Positions 4,555 to 33,496 of a DNA stretch of 64,000 nt are shown here, piece by piece (the first letter of the stretch is position 1; each line of letters starts with the position of its first letter). The position numbers and the translations under genes are program-made. Origin of the DNA: Candidatus Poribacteria bacterium (GTDB lineage Bacteria > Poribacteria > WGA-4E > WGA-3G); assembly GCA_022394775.1 (NCBI GenBank), contig JAGFCB010000022.1:32633-96632 (forward strand), in the 5' to 3' direction. The notes under the pieces are model-generated. The model worked only from the letters and a program-made list of their open reading frames with translations. It was not told the DNA's origin and searched no databases.

Positions 4555-5514
4555 ATGGGTAACCGGATATTTGAGAAACTTGCTGATCCAGACCTGCTTG
4601 CACAAAACCCGATCCTGGTTTTTGCGGCGGATCCACTTGCATCCGCTGGCATTAAAGGACTCGGACAGGTGCAGCATCCAAAACCACACTATCGTACACA
4701 CGCAGAGTTCTTGCAGCTTCAACGCGACCTCGTCGCTGATGGGCAATTAGATGGACTTCTGATGACACCTGCCGATGCAGAAACGCTTGCGCTTGAAGAA
4801 GACCTGCTTGAGAGCTCGCCGATCACACCGATTGTCCGGATGAATTCAGAAACCGCCATCTGGAACCCACGATTTGGTGTCTATACCTCACACCCGTCGA
4901 TGCCGTTTCAGACGGTATTTCCGGAGGATATGCAACGCTATTGTGAGGCACTTATCGGTCCCGCGCTGGAATGCAAGGTTAATCTTGGGTTGTACTCCAT
5001 TACACTCAACAACGATCCAGCCGCAGATGAACGGATGCTGCAAGCGTATGTACAATTCGCGCATGTCGTCGGTGAAATTGAAGGCTTCGATCATCTCTTA
5101 GAGGTGTTTTTACCGAACGTTAAACTCCCCGGCATGGACGAGGAAAAACGGGGTATGTACGTTGCGGATTCAATTGTTCGGACGATGAGTTACCTTCGGA
5201 AACACCAACGTCCCCGCTTTATTAAGACAGCGTATACGACTGGCGATGTCTGGGCTGAGTTGTGCCAATTCGATACGACGCTGGTGATCGGTGCGTTGGG
5301 CGGTCCTCGTCAAAACGCGCGTAGCACATTCACCTTGGCGCATAATGTCGTCAGTAACGGCGGACGTGCTATTCTGTTCGGACGCACCATCTTTGGAGAG
5401 GATGACCCGATCGGCTTTGTGCAATGCCTGCGTCGTGTGCTTGATGGCGAAGAAGATGCCCAGAGTGCCCATGCGTCGTATCAGAAGTTGTTGCGAGGTG
5501 TCCGTACGGGTTAG
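4555..5514 (+). CDS. Putative class I aldolase-like TIM-barrel protein
   Basis: HLLEVF, FIKTAY (candidate Schiff-base Lys), ALGG and GGRAILFGRTIF resemble the DeoC/FbaB/LacD-like barrel. Confidence 0.6.
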   Translation: MGNRIFEKLADPDLLAQNPILVFAADPLASAGIKGLGQVQHPKPHYRTHAEFLQLQRDLVADGQLDGLLMTPADAETLALEEDLLESSPITPIVRMNSETAIWNPRFGVYTSHPSMPFQTVFPEDMQRYCEALIGPALECKVNLGLYSITLNNDPAADERMLQAYVQFAHVVGEIEGFDHLLEVFLPNVKLPGMDEEKRGMYVADSIVRTMSYLRKHQRPRFIKTAYTTGDVWAELCQFDTTLVIGALGGPRQNARSTFTLAHNVVSNGGRAILFGRTIFGEDDPIGFVQCLRRVLDGEEDAQSAHASYQKLLRGVRTG

Positions 5515-5659
5515 CAAGGCTCCGTTATTCCTGAGGTCTGGTAGGCGCGCTTTGTAAATGTGCTTACCAGACAATCCAGCACAGTCTAACAGGCTATGCT
5601 ATAGCGGATCAAGAACACAGCCCAACAGGCTATGCTACAGCGGATTAGGAGATTTCTAA

Positions 5660-25180: not shown

Positions 25181-25788
25181 TTTTGCGGCGTACTCGCCCA
25201 TAAGCGATCTGCTTCATTACGGGCTAAGTTTCGTTTTGATTTAGGGTTTTTTCAATTGTTTTATAGAGGTTTACTGTCTCGATGCCAGCAATAGCGGCTT
25301 CGGCACCTTTGTTTCCTGCCTTGATACCGGCGCGTTCGAGTGCTTGCTCTATTGTATCTGTGGTGATGACCCCGTAGATGACTGGGATCCCAGTGTTGGC
25401 AGATAGATGGGAGATCCCCTTCGCGCTTTCGGCGGCAACATAATCGAAGTGGGGTGTCGCGCCTCGGATAACTGCGCCGAGGCAGAGCAGGGCGTCGTAT
25501 TTTTTATTTTCCGCGAGGCGTTTAGCGACTCCGGGAATCTCGAATGCACCCGGTGTCCAAAAGACATCAACTGCATCCAAGTCAACGCCGTGTCGTTTTA
25601 GTGCGTCTAACGCGCCAGCGAGAAGTTTTTCGGTAACGAAGCTATTGAATCGGCTGACAACAATACCGAAAGTGAGACCTTCGGCGATGAGATCACCTTC
25701 GTAGACGTTTGGCATTTTTTTACCTATTAAATCTGGTCACCGTTCCACTACGTTTTGCGGCGTACTCGCCCATAAGCGATCTGCTTCA
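25181..25788. repeat. Identical 36-bp direct repeats flanking ribH
   Basis: TTTTGCGGCGTACTCGCCCATAAGCGATCTGCTTCA at 25181-25216 and 25753-25788. Confidence 0.85.
25224..25715 (-). CDS. ribH: 6,7-dimethyl-8-ribityllumazine synthase
   Basis: [33 protein letters not shown]. Confidence 0.97.
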
Positions 25789-25894
25789 CGGTGGTTTCTG
25801 GTTAAGTTCAAACCGGTCAGGGTTATGAAAGGGTTTCCGAATAATTCAAATTAGGACGTTGTCAACAACTTGATGCCCCATCGCAGACAGAAAT

Positions 25895-27127
25895 TTATTC
25901 CTCGTCGAGGAGGAGGTGTCCAAGTTTGGAACGTTTTGTTTCCAAATATCTGCGATTAAAAGAATTGGGTTTAGTTTGAAGCGGCACCCGCTCAACGATT
26001 TCGAGTCCGTGTCCATCCAATCCTTTGACCTTTTGAGGGTTGTTTGTCATCAGTCGCATTTTTCGGACCCCTAAGTCCGCTAATATCTGTGCCCCGATCC
26101 CGTAATCGCGCAAATCTGCGGGGTATCCGAGGTGTTCGTTCGCTTCGACAGTATCTAATCCATCATTATCTTGTAGTTGATAGGCACGGAGTTTCTCTTT
26201 AAGCCCCATCCCTCTGCCTTCTTGTCGCATGTAGAGCAGCACGCCTCTGCCTTCCGTTTCAATAGTTTGGAGGGCGATTTCGAGTTGCTCGCCACAATCG
26301 CATCTGAGTGAACCAAACACATCGCCGGTGAGGCATTGTGAATGGACGCGGACTAAGAGCGGTGCCGCATCGGCGATATCGCCTTTTGTGAGTGCGATGT
26401 GTGTTCTATCTGTTTCAATGTTCTCGCCTGTTGTATCAGTGCTTTCGTAGGCGTGAAGTTTGAATTCGCCGTGTGCGGTAGGTATATCAGCAGTAGCGAC
26501 GCGTTTAATCAGCGTCTCCGTCTGGCGGCGGTATGCGATTAGGTCAGCGATGGTGATAATTTTGAGTTGATGTTTGGCGGCGAATTCCATTAACTCGGGG
26601 ACACGCGCCATACTGCCGTCCGCGTTGAGTATTTCACAGAGGACACCTGCGGGGTATAACCCAGCCATGCGTGATAAATCAACAGTGGCTTCGGTATGCC
26701 CTGCGCGCCGGAGTACCCCGCCGGGTTCTGCTTCTAAAGGGAAGATGTGTCCGGGTCGAACAAAATCTGAGGGCACAGCATCGGCATCAACAAATTTCTG
26801 TATTGTGTATGCGCGTTCTTGTGCGGAGATCCCGGTTGTTACCTCTTTCGCGTCAATAGTGACAGTGAATGCGGTTTGCATTTGCGCCGTGTTGGCGGCG
26901 ACCATCGGTTGGAGTTCAAGTTCAGCGAGCCGTTCTGAACAGGTGGGTAAACATATCAACCCTCTGCCGTGTGTCGCCATGAAATTAATAGTCTCTGCTG
27001 TCACCTTTTCAGCTGCCATGATGAGGTCGCCTTCGTTTTCACGGTCGGGTTCATCAACGACGATAATCAATTCTCCGTTTGCGATTGCAGAGAGTGCTTC
27101 AGGAATGGTATTAAAATTATTTGGCAT
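25895..27127 (-). CDS. ribBA: Bifunctional DHBP synthase / GTP cyclohydrolase II
   Basis: [50 protein letters not shown]. Confidence 0.97.
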
Positions 27128-27239
27128 AATGGCTATCGGTTATCGGCTATCGGCTGTCGGCTGTCGGTAACAAGAGGTTTCTGATTAACAAAAACCCTCT
27201 TTACCGATTGCTGACTGCTGACTGCCACTCCCCTGACTG

Positions 27240-27911
27240 CTATTCGATGTATCCGTGTTTTGCTAAGAAATTCAGATTGAGTATCTCAGAAGCAGGTTCC
27301 TCAGTCCAATCCTGCTTTATGTTCCCGTTTTTAAGAAGCGTTTCGAGATAACGCGCGATGATGTCAACTTCAAGGTTGACGCTGGCACCGATGCGTTTCG
27401 CGCCTAAAGTGGTCACCTGCTTCGTATGTGGAATCAAGGCGACTTCAAAAGCATCATCAAAGAGACTCGATACGGTTAGACTGATGCCATCGACGGTCAC
27501 GCACCCTTTATATGCGATATAGGGTCTGAGGTTGCGGCTCATCGTCACCTGCATCAGAGAAGCATCGCCTTCGTCTTTCCAAGCGGAGATTGTAGCGACT
27601 TCGTCTACGTGCCCAAGCACGAGGTGTCCGCCGAGTCTATCGCTTAACTGGAGCGAGCGTTCAAGGTTAATTTGTTCACCGACCTTCCGTTCGCCTAATG
27701 TCGTGCGGCGTAGAGTTTCAGCAGATATATCAGCAGTGAACGCCTCCGGTGTCAGTGCCCGGATTGTAAGACAAGCACCGTCAACGGCGATACTATCACC
27801 GACCTTTGCATCGGCGAGGATGTCCCTCGCCTGAATTTCGAGGATGACTCCTTGTGATAGCCGTTGGATATTTCGGATTGTTCCGAGTTCTTCAACGATC
27901 CCGGTGAACAT
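27240..27911 (-). CDS. ribE: Riboflavin synthase (alpha type)
   Basis: N-terminal MFTGIVEE, GDSIAVDGACLT, GGHLVLGHVD. Confidence 0.97.
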   Translation of the reverse strand: MFTGIVEELGTIRNIQRLSQGVILEIQARDILADAKVGDSIAVDGACLTIRALTPEAFTADISAETLRRTTLGERKVGEQINLERSLQLSDRLGGHLVLGHVDEVATISAWKDEGDASLMQVTMSRNLRPYIAYKGCVTVDGISLTVSSLFDDAFEVALIPHTKQVTTLGAKRIGASVNLEVDIIARYLETLLKNGNIKQDWTEEPASEILNLNFLAKHGYIE

Positions 27912-27941
27912 ATTATAGGTACCTCTACCAGTTATCAGTTA

Positions 27942-28080
27942 TCAGTTTCCAGTTATCAGTTAAGAGACCCCTTGTAGTGGGTACAAACCTTGTTACTGCC
28001 ACAAGCATCTTAGTTTTCAGTTTCCAGTTATCAGTTAAGAGACCGCTTGTAGTGGGTACAAACCTTGTTACTGCCACAAG
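27942..28080. repeat. 64-bp tandem duplication between ribD and ribE, containing CAGTTAT heptamers
   Basis: 27942-28005 and 28017-28080 differ at one base; related unit at about 905-955. Confidence 0.85.
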
Positions 28081-28135
28081 AACGGAACTGACAACTCTTC
28101 GCATTTCTTTTAGACAGTTAGGAAACTGAATAGGT

Positions 28136-29236
28136 CTACAGGTACCCTTCTATGAGAAAGTCATCGTCAGGCATCGGTGTGATACGGATGCGTTGTAAAT
28201 GCGGTACATCCTTCAAAGTGGGCACTCCTTCACCCCCGATAGGTCCCGGTGCATTCCGTCCACCGATGAGTTTAGGTGCTACGAAGCACATAACTTTATC
28301 GACGATACCAGCGGCTATAGCGGAGGCATTGATTTCGCCGCCGCCCTCTATTAAGACACTTGTTATCTCGCGTTTTCCCAATGTTTCCATCAAATTCATA
28401 AAACAGACCTTACCGTGCGCAGCTGGTGTCGTTAGCACTTCCGCGCCAGCCTTTTCGAGTGCCTTGATATTCGCCATCGGTGCGTCAGGCGTTACAGCAA
28501 CGATAACACCGGTACTGCTTTCGACGTTGAAAATGCGTGCGTCTGTCGGTGTCCTTCCGTGCGAATCCAGCACAATCCGGGTTGCGTCTTGTCCTTCCCT
28601 ATCTTGAAGTCGGGTTGTCAGTGAAGGATTATCGCGTTCAACTGTGCCTTTACCGACGAGAATCGCATCTACTTCGTCTCGGATCTCATGTCCGCGCAGT
28701 CGCGATGCCTCAGATGTAATCCATTGCGATTCGCCTGCGGTTGTCGCTATTTTTCCATCGAGGCTCATAGCAGTTTTGAGGACAACAAACGGCAGACCGG
28801 TTTGGATGTATTTCTTGTGGACTTCGTTTAATTCCGCTGCTTCGTGCGTACATATACCGACATGAACACGGATGTTGGCTTCCTCAAGTTGGCGAACCCC
28901 TTTGCCTGCGACGCTCGGATTCGGATCGACTTCTGCGATGTAGACGTTCGCGATGCCAGCCTGAATCACAGCCGCTGTGCAGGGCGGAGTGCGTCCCCAG
29001 TGGCAACACGGCTCAAGGTTCGTGTAGAGTGTTGCACCTTTGGCATTTTCACCTGCGGCGTTTAGCGCATGGACTTCGGCATGTGCGGTTCCCGCTTTTT
29101 GATGGTAACCTTCACCAATAACCGTACCGTCTTTTACAATGACTGTGCCAACGAGTGGGTTGGGACTGGTGCGTCCTTTTGCTTGTTTTGCCAACACGAG
29201 TGCGCGTTGCATGAAGGTTATATGTGCTTTGTCCAT
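28136..29236 (-). CDS. ribD: Bifunctional diaminohydroxyphosphoribosylaminopyrimidine deaminase / reductase
   Basis: SPNPLVG, HAEV, LEPCCHWGRTPPC, SLDGKIA, LIEGG. Confidence 0.97.
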   Translation of the reverse strand: MDKAHITFMQRALVLAKQAKGRTSPNPLVGTVIVKDGTVIGEGYHQKAGTAHAEVHALNAAGENAKGATLYTNLEPCCHWGRTPPCTAAVIQAGIANVYIAEVDPNPSVAGKGVRQLEEANIRVHVGICTHEAAELNEVHKKYIQTGLPFVVLKTAMSLDGKIATTAGESQWITSEASRLRGHEIRDEVDAILVGKGTVERDNPSLTTRLQDREGQDATRIVLDSHGRTPTDARIFNVESSTGVIVAVTPDAPMANIKALEKAGAEVLTTPAAHGKVCFMNLMETLGKREITSVLIEGGGEINASAIAAGIVDKVMCFVAPKLIGGRNAPGPIGGEGVPTLKDVPHLQRIRITPMPDDDFLIEGYL

Positions 29237-29386
29237 GCTGAAAACCGAAAACCTTTGCTTGTATAGTATATCATATTTTTCTGGGAAATCAAATTATTTA
29301 TTAAAGTTTCGCTGTTGCTTTTAAGCAGCCCTCTTGCAGGCGGGGTTTCAAACCCCGCTTGCAGGGCTGGGAAATCAAATTATTTA

Positions 29387-29878
29387 TTAAAGTTTCGCTA
29401 TTGCTTTCAAGGATTCGAGGACTTCTGTCTGTTGGACGAGATCGAATTGATGTGTGCCGATATACATATATCTGATAACCCCTGTTTTGTCAATGACAAA
29501 CGTTGACGGACGTGCGATGTTGTAAGCCTCAAGACTGAGCCAGTGGTAGACGCCGTAGTTTTTGATGACGTTCCGCGTTTTGTCTATTAGCAGTGGGAAT
29601 GTGATGCCGTTTTTATCGGCATAGCCGCGGAGTTCGCGGGGCCACTGCCCAGCGATGGCAAGTGGTGTTGCTGTATGCTCGGCGTAGGCTTCAACATTTT
29701 CTTGGACTGCCGACAACTGACGGCGGCTGTTCGGTCACCATGTTCCTCTGAAGAATGTTAGCACGATGTGTTGCGCGTCTCGGTACGCTTCAAGCGAGAT
29801 GTCCACTCGTTGGTGTGATGACAGTGTGAATAGGGGCGCGGTATCGCCGATGTTGAGGATTTTGTTTTTTCGCGGCAT
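29387..29878 (-). CDS. AhpC/TSA (peroxiredoxin-like) redoxin, probable selenoprotein with UxxS motif
   Basis: Frame from ATG 29878 reads GDTAPLFTL...IVLTFFRGTW-TGA-PNSRRQL and continues into the listed 109-aa ORF (FPLLID, RPSTFVIDKTGVIRY); TGA at 29737-29735 aligns with the Cys of WCPxC. Confidence 0.82.
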
Positions 29879-29884
29879 GGGCAT

Positions 29885-29913
29885 ATTGTATGGGATATTA
29901 GGGTTGCTGTCAA
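29885..29913 (-). promoter_or_regulatory. sigma70-like promoter, probably leaderless transcript
   Basis: TTGACA-17-TACAAT, followed 6 nt later by ATG 29878. Confidence 0.65.
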
Positions 29914-30003
29914 GTTTTTAGCGGTTGGCAGTGTAAATATGAGATGGCGTGAGGGATGTCGCGAGGTAGAAGATCACGAGCATAGGAGGATATGAAGCAG
30001 AAA

Positions 30004-30056
30004 GATCGCGAGTACAGATTGAGCCTACAAAGATCGCGAGCACAGCTCGCTCCTAC
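30004..30056 (-). repeat. GTAG-type REP cluster (GTAGGAGCGAGCTGTGCTCGCGATC)
   Basis: Full copy 30032-30056, degenerate copy 30004-30028; same REP at 33847-33959 (three) and 41605-41673 (two). Confidence 0.85.
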
Positions 30057-30082
30057 AGAAGAGGGGTTGGATTCTATAGCCT

Positions 30083-33000
30083 TTACTTTTCCTCTTGATT
30101 GGTCGAAGAAGGGAGTGCATACATGCTTCGCCGCACTTTCACAATTTCACCAGCATCGACAAGCCGTTTGAGTTCGTTTTTTGTGGAACCTGGATGTCCT
30201 TCAATGACATCAATGAGTTCAGATGTTTTTTTCTCGCCTGTGGCAAGAAGTGCGAAGATCTGATCACGGAGCGGGACGCGGAGGGGTTTCCCGCCTCTAA
30301 ACTTCATCAATATTCGATTGGCTTGGCTTCTGGAGATGCCCAAGACGTGTTCTACTTCATCTCTATGGGATTCGGCAGTGAGAGTGTCGCGTTCTGCCTC
30401 AAACTGCTCACGCGTAGCGATGGTTTCAGGGAGTTTGTCTAAGCCACCGGCGACCTCAAAATCTTCCCAATCAAAAAGCAACGTTTCAGGACGATCAGTG
30501 ATATCAGGGAGGGGTACACTCGCAAGCAGGACTACGGTTTTATTGGGTAAGCGGTTCAAGCCGGCGCGTCCGATAACCTGTGAAAATAAGCCTACAGATT
30601 GCCGTTCATGGACGGACCGAATGCGTGCGTCTTTATAGATACCGGATACTGCTTCACCATCATAAGAGAGGGGTTTTTCGTCGTCTCCGAACTGGATCTG
30701 CGATTGTCTCCAAACGTGTTCTGGTGTCCAGAAAGGTCCCCCAACGATCCAAATGACATCTGCCGTTTCAAAAGCGGAGGTTTCTAATGTTGTTAGGTGC
30801 TTAAAGCCCTTAACGAAACAGACGTTCTCTTTTGCTGCGATGTGCTTTAAATGTAGTTTTACCGGTGCGCAGCAGATAATTGCATGCCGAACGTTCGGGT
30901 CCTTCTCAATTTCGGCTTGGATATGGAGAAAAAAGCGTTGCCCCATTTCGGACATGCCGAGTACCCGCCAGTCGGTATCGTAGTTTAAAAGCGTATGTCG
31001 TGGATAGATGCCTGTTCGGATCTGAAAGACTCGATTTCCGGGTACCCATGCTGTCGGTTTGACGTGATGGACTTCAATTTCGGCATCGGGGAACGCTCTA
31101 CGCAAATCGCGTTCAGAAAGCATTGATGACATAAACAAGAGTCGTTTGACGTTCGGATGCAACACCGGCGGCACCCAGAACTTTAACTGTGTCTCATCCC
31201 ATAACATGGGAGCATCGGCATCCCGTAAGTAATATGCGAAGAAACGCGTGAGTTGATGCCAAAATGTCCAGTTCAGATCCTGACAGACAGTTGGAAAGTC
31301 TTGAATTTTCGCAGTAGTTGAGGTATCCAAGATCCCGAATTCAATGGCTTGTGTAATTGAGATAGGGATATTCAGGTCTTGGTTCAATTGAAAAGCCTCA
31401 AGTTCAAAGGCCGGTACTTCTTTTAGGGTGAGTCTATTCGCAGCGTCGGTATCCAAGGGAATGTAGGCAGCGGTGCCGCCGTCAAACTCGATAGCAAAAC
31501 GCGCTAACATCTTTCCGGTTTGATCATCAACAAATTCGCGGGGTACGACTTTAGCGGTTATATTGACTTGCCCCATTTGCTGGGCGAGCGTTGCTTCTTG
31601 TCCTTGAAAGGCTTGCACGACGGCTCGGACGCGCCTGATAGGATTCTCATCCATTTCGCCTTTAATCTCTAAAGCGTTTAGTAAAGCAGTGGTAAAGTTC
31701 CCTAAGGCGTACCCGCGCCAATTCAGGCACCAATTTTCCAAGGTATCTTTTGATATTTTACACTGTATAAACAGCCTACCTGCGTGTGCTTCATCGATGA
31801 CACAAAGTCGTTCTGTGCTGTCCACAGGTTCAAGAATTTCAGCTGCCATTTTTGCGTGTTCTGGATCCAAAAACAGCCGAATAGGATTCAATATTTGTAC
31901 TGCGGCATTTTTTAGCGCGGTAGATTGGGATAAATATCCACGTTGTTGGCATTCAGTATAGACGGGACACTGTGGACAAATACTCTCATTCGGATTTCCA
32001 CCTTTCTCTTCGAGTGCCTTACACCGCTCTGGATCCTCGCAGACATTCCCGTGTTGAAAGGGTGTCGCCATCCGTATCTCGGCAGGTATATCTTTCACTT
32101 TTTGCCACAAGTAATTCCGGGGTCTGAGGTGTACAACCGATGACACATTTCGATCCCGAAAGTGTTGTTCGAGTTTTTGCGTCACCTCGAATTCCGCGGT
32201 TAGACTAACAGTGCCGCCGTCAAGGGCATGGGTCGCCGCAGCGTAGCTTTTACCGCCACCGTCTTCGGCAATAAGTCCAAGAATCCGTACATCCCGATTA
32301 AAAACGCTCTGCATCTGGGTAGCACTTTCTTCAAGCGTTCCATAAACCTTATTCTGCGTTTCTTTTTTAGGTAGGACTGGAGAGGGTCGTTTTATTCCCA
32401 ATGGGCTGAGCTTGGCTTCGCGTACGGCAAGAATATTATCGGTTACAGGTAATCCAGTGGTCGGTATTGCTGGCAGAATACCGGTATCATCCCAGATATT
32501 TGTTAGCGGTGTCGCTTCCATTGGTAGCCCAGTATCAGGCATGGAAGCGCGAACCCAGACTTCTGTATCTTGCTCCCATAGCGAAACGTGTGCATCGCCA
32601 AAACCGCTGTCGGATTGACGCCACTGGTAAATGCCGTCCTTTTGTTGAAGATAAGAAAACCCGCGCTTCAAAAACGCCTCTTTTGCGAGGTTAAGGTTGT
32701 GCGATCCGAAGGACATTGGCACGATAGGCATCTCTTGAACGGCAGCTTCCAAGTCGCTTTCTTCAAGCGATATTGGTTGGTGAAGTGCAGCCCGAAGCGT
32801 ATCAATAGGTGCCAAGAGTACCTCTTTGGCAATGATAGGTGGATCTAAGAGGTTTCCCATCAGAATTTCGTGGCGGCCATCCCAACAACTGTATCCTTTA
32901 TCGCCTAAGATTTCAAGCAGATGCGCGCGATGGTATGGATTTTCGGAGGTCGGTGTGTGTTTGTAAATATACTGTTTGGCTTCATTGGTATTGGGATGGA

Positions 33001-33496
33001 GATAATTCAGGACTCTGCAGGAGAAGCGCAATCCACCAGACTTTGATAGCGTCAATAGTGGGTTCGCGACAGCGTTAAGGAGTGCCTCAACACAGGTGAG
33101 AACGGCATCGGGAGCAGCACAAATAGCGTCATACTTAAACTCGATGTCGTGCCACTGGGCACCCTCACATTCTGAGGGGACACCGGTATATACTTGGATT
33201 CCCCATGATTGATGCCAGAATACCCCAGTCCAGTCTTTTCTGCCTTGGCGTTTCAAGAATCGTTCTTCCTCAAAACCTGACAGACCGTGGTCGTAATCAG
33301 GGACGCGCCTCATCGGCATGAAAGAGATGTTCGCCTGCTCAAGTCTATAAAGGTTTACAGGGTATCTCCAAGCACAATAGGCGGTAAAATTATAAGGAAG
33401 CGCTTTATAGAGTGCTGGTGTTACTCTTGTCTTACGCTGTCGAAGGGGTTTTTTGTGTCGTTGATGACAACGTTGAATGATATCTTTTAAATTCAT
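30083..33496 (-). CDS. Large hypothetical protein: Prim-Pol-like N-terminus, Cys cluster, SF2 helicase-like core, C-terminal HTH/wHTH
   Basis: GIQVYTGVPS, WHDIE, TLSKSGGLR, LEILGDKGY; AEDGGGKS, VIDEAH, QVIGRAGLNR; CEDPERC...CPQCPVYTEC; C-terminal LKRLVDAGEIVKVRRSMY. Confidence 0.7.
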   Translation of the reverse strand: MNLKDIIQRCHQRHKKPLRQRKTRVTPALYKALPYNFTAYCAWRYPVNLYRLEQANISFMPMRRVPDYDHGLSGFEEERFLKRQGRKDWTGVFWHQSWGIQVYTGVPSECEGAQWHDIEFKYDAICAAPDAVLTCVEALLNAVANPLLTLSKSGGLRFSCRVLNYLHPNTNEAKQYIYKHTPTSENPYHRAHLLEILGDKGYSCWDGRHEILMGNLLDPPIIAKEVLLAPIDTLRAALHQPISLEESDLEAAVQEMPIVPMSFGSHNLNLAKEAFLKRGFSYLQQKDGIYQWRQSDSGFGDAHVSLWEQDTEVWVRASMPDTGLPMEATPLTNIWDDTGILPAIPTTGLPVTDNILAVREAKLSPLGIKRPSPVLPKKETQNKVYGTLEESATQMQSVFNRDVRILGLIAEDGGGKSYAAATHALDGGTVSLTAEFEVTQKLEQHFRDRNVSSVVHLRPRNYLWQKVKDIPAEIRMATPFQHGNVCEDPERCKALEEKGGNPNESICPQCPVYTECQQRGYLSQSTALKNAAVQILNPIRLFLDPEHAKMAAEILEPVDSTERLCVIDEAHAGRLFIQCKISKDTLENWCLNWRGYALGNFTTALLNALEIKGEMDENPIRRVRAVVQAFQGQEATLAQQMGQVNITAKVVPREFVDDQTGKMLARFAIEFDGGTAAYIPLDTDAANRLTLKEVPAFELEAFQLNQDLNIPISITQAIEFGILDTSTTAKIQDFPTVCQDLNWTFWHQLTRFFAYYLRDADAPMLWDETQLKFWVPPVLHPNVKRLLFMSSMLSERDLRRAFPDAEIEVHHVKPTAWVPGNRVFQIRTGIYPRHTLLNYDTDWRVLGMSEMGQRFFLHIQAEIEKDPNVRHAIICCAPVKLHLKHIAAKENVCFVKGFKHLTTLETSAFETADVIWIVGGPFWTPEHVWRQSQIQFGDDEKPLSYDGEAVSGIYKDARIRSVHERQSVGLFSQVIGRAGLNRLPNKTVVLLASVPLPDITDRPETLLFDWEDFEVAGGLDKLPETIATREQFEAERDTLTAESHRDEVEHVLGISRSQANRILMKFRGGKPLRVPLRDQIFALLATGEKKTSELIDVIEGHPGSTKNELKRLVDAGEIVKVRRSMYALPSSTNQEEK

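Follow-up and report, generated by a model that had tools for sequence, protein, structure and literature searches.

Selenoproteins related to peroxiredoxins have been catalogued in more than one form. The Prx-like thiol:disulfide oxidoreductases, with domain PF00578 and a UxxC or UxxU motif, are covered in excerpts of PMC13188914, PMC9312934, PMC1088965, and PMC2398784. An AhpC/TSA family with a UxxS motif (cd02970/PF13911) is entered in the tables of PMC13188914 and PMC9312934, both of which credit it to a study of Olavius symbionts (PMC1976440). Outside these families, the motif listings of PMC1088965 and PMC13188914 give UxxT for glutathione peroxidase and UxxS for the Sec-type arsenate reductase ArsC, while the motif of the Sec-peroxiredoxins is given as TxxU in the table of PMC13188914. 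For the Poribacteria themselves, the literature passages on selenoproteins that surfaced hold only a mention of Sec-hydrogenases (PMC13582414).

The locus described here lies in a window of 64,000 nucleotides, by which we mean the whole stretch of Candidatus Poribacteria DNA that was analysed. We put a probability of about 85% on its being a genuine selenoprotein gene that is expressed as one piece, with UGA read as Sec at the position of the first Cys in the WCPxC motif of its homologues. The protein joins the known Prx-like selenoproteins as a further member, possibly as a UxxS variant; UxxC and UxxS families of that kind are already catalogued.

The gene occupies the minus strand, in an open frame (29884..29387) that begins with the ATG at 29884, ends with the stop codon TAA at 29389-29387 and has a TGA at 29737-29735 as its sole interruption. 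The read-through translation is MPMPRKNK...FFRGTW-U-PNSRRQL...AIAKL and holds no Cys residue. A second in-frame ATG at 29878 opens MPRKNK, and since this N terminus is common to all 37 orthologues that were fetched, the gene most likely runs from 29878 to 29387, with 163 codons (the Sec codon included) before the TAA, Sec at residue 48 (29735..29737), and Ser at residue 51. The codons of the U-P-N-S redox motif (29726..29737) are invariant in the 37 orthologues, every one of which has TGA at the Sec position. The ATG at 29884-29882 abuts the -10 hexamer of the promoter and is probably unused as a start. The sequence-only reading from which this work set out had described a 163-residue frame without any Cys, with TGA as codon 48 and as the only interruption, in the context FFRGTW-TGA-PNSRRQL; all of this holds on the minus strand when counted from the ATG at 29878. 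Its observations on the frame, the TGA, and the promoter likewise stand, while the hairpin that it pointed out is present but does not go beyond chance. Its interpretation of the locus as encoding a Sec enzyme is supported by the Sec machinery, the conservation of TGA or Cys at the site, and the truncated gene calls, all of which are in favor.

An orthologue is present in 53 of 61 related genomes, always with one TGA in it, and, at a threshold of E <= 1e-25, in 135 of an even set of 151 genomes that served as the phylum sample; 134 of these carry TGA and one carries TGT (Cys). With the window's own genome left out, 98 of 99, 10 of 10, and 26 of 26 genomes of three families have the gene (f1, f2, and f3, respectively), and none was found in the 15 sampled genomes from six other families of the phylum. 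The motif FFRGTW-U-PNSR-(R/C)-QL is shared by all 37 fetched orthologues, among which 54 of the 163 positions are invariant, including RGTWUPNSR, QWPRE, and NIARP. Comparisons within the genus give a dN/dS of 0.068 over the 47 codons that precede the TGA and of 0.073 over the remainder, at a dS of about 1, and this equal purifying selection on either side implies that both parts are translated, in one frame.

A true stop at the TGA would make the locus either a pseudogene or a pair of small genes encoding a peptide of 47 to 49 aa and a C-terminal redoxin fragment of about 109 aa. Gene callers do report the halves separately, in that 117 of the 120 matches listed are C-terminal pieces (of 96 to 121 aa) and N-terminal pieces of about 49 aa are found among the homologue representatives; the SECIS-like hairpin is weak, and TGA is an ordinary stop elsewhere in the genome. 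However, 134 of 135 orthologues, including ones as low as 55% in identity, keep the TGA in frame and free of indels, and both halves are under strong purifying selection. In addition, the halves jointly form one intact Prx fold in the structural model described below, of which the C-terminal piece alone would be without the active-site strand and helix. Together with the TGT codon in one species, the Cys residues of homologues, and the Sec machinery of the genome, this leaves termination at the TGA a very remote prospect.

The TGT exception belongs to genome G132 (FFRGTW-C-PNSRRQL), whose congener retains TGA. This gene (L060; G132:C1, 289-783, minus strand) is the sole Cys orthologue of 135, and its retained downstream hairpin sequence (-12.7 kcal/mol) suggests that Sec gave way to Cys recently. 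More distant homologues were sampled with an exhaustive HMMER search; of its 150 best representatives, 123 extend over the motif. In 89 of these 123 a Cys is aligned with Sec, in 85 cases as CxxC and typically in the context RGTWCPNCRRQ, and natural 1-Cys relatives (CxxA, CxxS) also occur. Homologues had been expected to show TGA or Cys at this site with conservation on both sides, and that is the pattern found, from near-universal TGA with a single TGT in the phylum to WCPxC in the distant relatives. A further group among the 123 has Ser in place of Sec (17 SxxT and 2 SxxS, with the motif FAPGSW-S-PN-T/S-RRQ); its members (P0138, P0153, P0158, and others) are longer, at 240 to 360 aa, with low-complexity acidic tails, and are apparently redox-dead look-alikes of the same motif.

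The means to insert Sec are encoded in full. The genome has selA (603.8 bits), selB (342.2 bits), a tRNA-Sec gene (selC; 77.5 bits) about 70 nt after selB, and selD (360.9 bits), which lies on the same contig as the selenoprotein gene (C309:6008-6931, minus strand) and itself carries an in-frame TGA. All four, which the sequence-only reading had proposed to look for, score above their curated cut-offs, and ARAGORN found no tRNA within the window. The combination that would have spoken for a nonsense mutation or a sequencing error, a genome lacking Sec machinery with Cys in every close homologue, is thus not what this genome and its relatives show. TGA closes 294 of the 1,501 open frames of at least 400 codons in the genome, so there is no genome-wide reassignment of TGA.

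These data also bear on a reading of the UGA as a standard amino acid, through near-cognate suppression by Trp or Cys or through a reassigned code. Three public gene calls give W at the codon, and no strong SECIS accompanies it. Against this, TGA ends many long frames and is not reassigned, the aligned residue in homologues is mostly Cys and not Trp, and the only orthologue without TGA has Cys. Moreover, selA, selB, selC, and selD are all present, and several other redoxin genes of the genome carry TGA at catalytic Cys positions. We therefore regard decoding as a standard amino acid as highly improbable and retain Sec as the residue encoded. Taken together, the lines of evidence above are those by which selenoproteins are classically recognized.

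At least five further thioredoxin-fold genes in the genome carry TGA in frame at their catalytic position (C46:16542-16937, minus strand; C145:5259-5705, minus strand; C267:16528-17007, plus strand; C247:5657-6082 and 5183-5629, both minus strand). Two are Prx-like with UxxC (FYRGGW-U-PFC and FYRFGT-U-GFC), one has QTY-U-PVC, and two are tandem BCP-type TxxU peroxiredoxins; the true TxxU Sec-peroxiredoxin genes are thus found elsewhere in the genome, on C247. In relatives, many of these TGA redoxin genes lie in open frames of 370 to 500 aa, which suggests fusion proteins.

The protein matches the Pfam domain AhpC-TSA (PF00578) with 96.5 bits (1.4e-27), and Redoxin was also matched. NCBIfam gave sub-threshold matches only, of which ResA was the best (5.6e-15, below its cut-off), along with BCP and a SelL-related redox protein. 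AlphaFold2, run with an alignment of 50 sequences, produced a model with a pLDDT of 96.3 and a pTM of 0.92, in which, in the numbering of the 165-aa frame, the Sec at residue 50 comes after a strand (39-44) and directly before the active-site helix (51-62). The best solved relatives according to Foldseek are peroxiredoxins of the BCP/PrxQ and AhpE types (Bcp4, 3hjp, TM 0.88; AhpE, TM 0.83), and by sequence the best is AhpE (8.7e-16). Among the cluster members of five homologues there was one name, "peroxiredoxin family protein," for a CxxC homologue in a Brevibacillus.

The active site is in a different register from that of these relatives. Peroxiredoxins have the active-site motif PxxxTxxC. 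When the protein is aligned with AhpE, F-F-R-G-T-W-U-P-N-S pairs with F-F-P-L-A-F-T-G-I-C, which places Sec at the conserved Thr, Ser51 at the peroxidatic Cys, and Arg at the conserved Pro; the aligned residues thus read R...U..S, and a PxxxTxxC motif ending in a peroxidatic Cys or Sec is absent. Since Pro, Thr, and Cys are replaced by Arg, Sec, and Ser, classical Prx chemistry cannot be assumed, and, judged by these residues, the protein is not a classical peroxiredoxin despite its Prx domain and fold. The description of the product as a peroxiredoxin-like redoxin with a UxxS motif is accordingly borne out for the AhpC-TSA domain, the fold, and the motif itself but not for a strict peroxiredoxin active site. 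In the model, Sec48 would instead sit at the thioredoxin-type nucleophile position, just before the first active-site helix. The Sec of glutathione peroxidase occupies the same structural position. In alignments, a stretch RPSTF falls on the cis-Pro region of ResA-type proteins.

Cys residues are sparse in the whole group. Of 37 orthologues, 24 lack Cys altogether, another 12 carry one in the C-terminal helix (accompanied in 2 cases by a second elsewhere), and the remaining one has a Cys at column 53 only, so that no Cys is conserved and the lack of a resolving Cys, noted earlier for the window's protein, extends to the orthologue group.

Compared with the Prx-like UxxC/UxxU selenoproteins, the protein has the same Pfam domain, AhpC-TSA, is likewise bacterial and from a marine setting, and has its Sec first in a thioredoxin-like xWUPxx motif, not in the TxxU of true Sec-peroxiredoxins. 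It differs in that the fourth motif position is Ser (37 of 37 orthologues), not Cys or Sec, and in that it has no conserved Cys; the canonical UxxC paralogue of the same genome (FYRGGW-U-PFC) is only about 30% identical to it. With the catalogued UxxS family it has in common a UxxS motif in a peroxiredoxin-like protein. PF13911 did not match the selenoprotein even at E <= 1. A distant relative with UPNS (P0141), in whose public gene call the TGA is translated as W, is 35% identical by phmmer and 33% by MAFFT and matches PF13911 with 28.4 bits against a cut-off of 27, which makes a link to the cd02970/PF13911 UxxS family plausible. That the orthologue group is instead a distinct, undescribed obligate-Sec family, separate from the catalogued cd02970 one, seems unlikely to us. 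The traits that would set it apart are the register-shifted active site (Sec at Thr, Ser at the peroxidatic position), the invariant Q-W-P-R-E loop, the near-universal occurrence in three families of a sponge-associated phylum, and the place of the gene within the genus as the probably leaderless first gene of a riboflavin operon.

The 1-Cys peroxiredoxins of the AhpE (Rv2238c) and BCP/PrxQ types are likewise small, single-domain proteins with one redox-active residue, but here that residue stands three positions earlier. Glutathione peroxidase and Sec-ArsC each combine a single Sec with a hydroxyl residue three positions on and lack an internal resolving Cys, as does this protein, and regeneration in all three must therefore come from external thiols. 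Both belong to different families (PF00255 and PF03960, respectively) without a detectable sequence match to the protein, and the likeness to them is mechanistic only.

How the UGA is marked for Sec insertion is less clear than the case for Sec itself. GCCG (29724-29721), UCAGUUGU, and CGGC (29712-29709) follow the TGA after a 10-nt spacer, within a SECIS-like hairpin region at 29706..29730 on the minus strand that is present in the sequence but does not rise above controls. A GCC-GCC repeat permits two registers of this short, G+C-rich hairpin, the one originally proposed (29724-29721 paired with 29712-29709) and a 7-pair helix (29727-29721 with 29715-29709) with the loop UCAGU. The 43 nt after the UGA fold with -7.8 kcal/mol, a z of -0.81 against dinucleotide shuffles, 34 of 200 of which were at least as stable. 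Against resamples of synonymous codons, the mean z in the three families was -0.77 (n = 20), -0.99 (n = 9), and -0.02 (n = 8), values comparable with those of control windows from other parts of the same gene, which spanned -0.95 to +0.68. For 36 of the 37 orthologues, the hairpin was no more stable than in synonymous resamples, and the only one with a clearly strong hairpin was L042 (10 bp, -17.3 kcal/mol, z of about -4). Covariation in neither helix register exceeded the shuffle or slide controls, and the small helix predicted by RNAalifold differed from family to family. A search of 27000-31000 against Rfam at E <= 1 returned no family, neither a SECIS element nor an FMN riboswitch ahead of ribD; to our knowledge, Rfam contains no general bacterial SECIS model. 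The claim of a SECIS-like hairpin is thus upheld for its sequence and its 10-nt spacer, and neither folding energy nor covariation lends it support.

The codons themselves tell a different story. In the seven that follow the UGA (PNSRRQL), the normalised synonymous entropy is 0.41 versus 0.75 elsewhere, the lowest of 64 sliding windows and a value reached by 3 of 20,000 random sets. Across the 37 orthologues, Gln is always CAG, Arg is restricted to CGY or CGG, Ser to AGY, and Leu to UUR, whereas Arg, Leu, and Gln codons elsewhere in the gene vary freely. CAGTT is invariant in all 37 sequences, and the CAGUU of the transcript lies in or beside the hairpin loop. On this synonymous constraint, we conclude that the codons after the UGA appear to carry an RNA signal of some kind, though no hairpin of convincing stability. 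Two paralogous Sec genes of the same genome (on C46 and C145) have near-identical and far stronger SECIS hairpins of 7 bp (GCAACUC-GGU-GAGUUGC).

The gene is preceded by a near-consensus promoter. A -35 hexamer TTGACA (29908..29913, minus strand), identical in 20 of 20 loci of the genus, is followed after 17 nt by a -10 hexamer TACAAT (29885..29890, minus strand), which stands 6 nt before the conserved ATG. The promoter scores 11 of 12, against a mean of 1.3 for shuffles, and is the best of four promoter-like sites in 29000-30200. In the 20 genus loci, the -10 hexamer is found in the same register as TACAAT (10), TATAAT (7), TACAGT (2), or TAGAGT (1), and all of them retain the -35 and the -10 as well as the 6-nt gap before the ATG, while the DNA further upstream varies. 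TTGACA-17-TACAAT 6 nt before the ATG, as noted in the sequence-only reading, is therefore confirmed, and its conserved spacing from the ATG is compatible with a leaderless mRNA. The interval between the -10 hexamer and the ATG is too short for a Shine-Dalgarno sequence. Transcription from sigma-70 promoters usually starts about 7 nt after the -10, which here would make the A of the ATG the first transcribed nucleotide. The mRNA, probably leaderless, would be transcribed from this promoter of the sigma-70 type. In four runs, contigs of relatives at a likeness of at least 80% span the TGA position, one metatranscriptome library included; such contigs do not show transcription or its starts and ends.

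The transcript may run on into a riboflavin operon. The cluster downstream on the same strand is complete (25224-29236) and consists of ribD (28136-29236), which adjoins the selenoprotein gene as had been stated, followed by ribE (27240-27911), ribBA (25895-27127), and ribH (25224-25715). In all 20 genus loci ribD comes after the gene, and no match to it was found in the 300-nt flanks of 17 loci from the other two families. A functional tie to riboflavin synthesis was considered, and the adjacency, seen only in genus loci, is treated as synteny at the genus level with no demonstrated functional meaning. On the other side, an ORF of 1,137 aa lies directly upstream (30083-33496, minus strand); it has no Pfam match at E <= 1e-5, and within flanks of 1.5 kb a homologue at the same position was seen in 3 of 20 genus loci (L023, which is the window's own, L024, and L029).

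Repeats surround the gene. Between it and ribD is a palindrome with 14-nt arms (29335..29363), a copy of a dispersed REP-like element with 124 genome matches at up to 3 mismatches (both strands counted, the query being palindromic). It is flanked by two 45-nt direct repeats (29281-29325 and 29367-29411), 86 nt apart and 96% alike, and the second of these takes in the final codons of the selenoprotein gene together with its stop codon, as though the repeat insertion had duplicated its target, the 45 nt at the 3' end of the gene. The other copy encloses a promoter-like TTGATT-16-TATACT with a TG extension (29292-29265). A second, different palindromic element at 30031-30055 has 50 genome matches at up to 2 mismatches (both strands counted). 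Both palindromes look like REP-type repeats, and in other runs from sponges, corals, and marine settings the contig depth over both is very high.

With regard to how the protein might work, SelB with Sec-tRNA(Sec) would recode the UGA under the guidance of an RNA signal within the following 25 nt or so, to yield a 163-aa cytoplasmic protein with a peroxiredoxin fold of the BCP/AhpE type. Ser51 would take the place of both the peroxidatic Cys of peroxiredoxins and the resolving Cys of CxxC proteins, and with no conserved Cys anywhere we infer that the protein must act as a single-selenol enzyme. The selenolate of Sec48, with Q78 and W79 as putative neighbors, would by homology be oxidised by the substrate, giving either a selenenic acid or a selenenylsulfide. 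External thiols, whether of low molecular weight or on a partner of the thioredoxin or glutaredoxin type, would then restore the selenolate, in a manner that may be analogous to that of glutathione peroxidase (UxxT) and Sec-type ArsC (UxxS).

The nature of the oxidant divides the possible functions. A hydroperoxide has somewhat less than an even chance in our judgment, and a disulfide or an S-thiolated or sulfenylated protein is a tentative second candidate; some other oxidant is unlikely. The hydroperoxide is put slightly ahead. The relatives by fold are peroxidases, while the motif and the cis-Pro-like RPSTF stretch resemble thioredoxin or ResA. We see it as possible, if not the favored view, that this real selenoprotein is a thiol-disulfide or de-thiolating reductase or isomerase, monothiol and thioredoxin/glutaredoxin-like, and not a peroxidase. 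The Sec at the N-terminal nucleophile position of a WCxxC motif of the thioredoxin type would fit such a function, as would the match of RPSTF to the cis-Pro region of ResA-type proteins, the sub-threshold ResA match as the best in NCBIfam, and the replacement of Pro, Thr, and Cys of the peroxiredoxin site. However, the fold and the best solved relatives are those of BCP/AhpE-type peroxidases, the gene neighborhood indicates no partner or substrate, and Sec at this structural position in a UxxS/T motif is also a feature of glutathione peroxidase (UxxT in the motif table of PMC13188914).

Whichever substrate applies, the gene has been largely hidden from view. Among the matches listed, public gene calls either truncate the protein to its C-terminal fragment, which is inactive, or place Trp at the TGA, and the suspicion that standard ORF calling cuts the gene short proved correct. 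With the gene calls cut or mistranslated in this way, the function is invisible in genome-based studies of these sponge-associated bacteria. The gene also indicates that a conserved Sec codon can occur without a thermodynamically convincing hairpin, which bears on gene finders that rely on SECIS elements. Should the orthologue group be a distinct family after all, it might be a convergent, glutathione peroxidase-like selenoperoxidase or be tied to flavin synthesis. As a protein that nearly always has Sec and no conserved Cys, it would give a clean example from nature of catalysis by a single selenol on a peroxiredoxin scaffold, for which the lone Cys orthologue offers a natural comparison.
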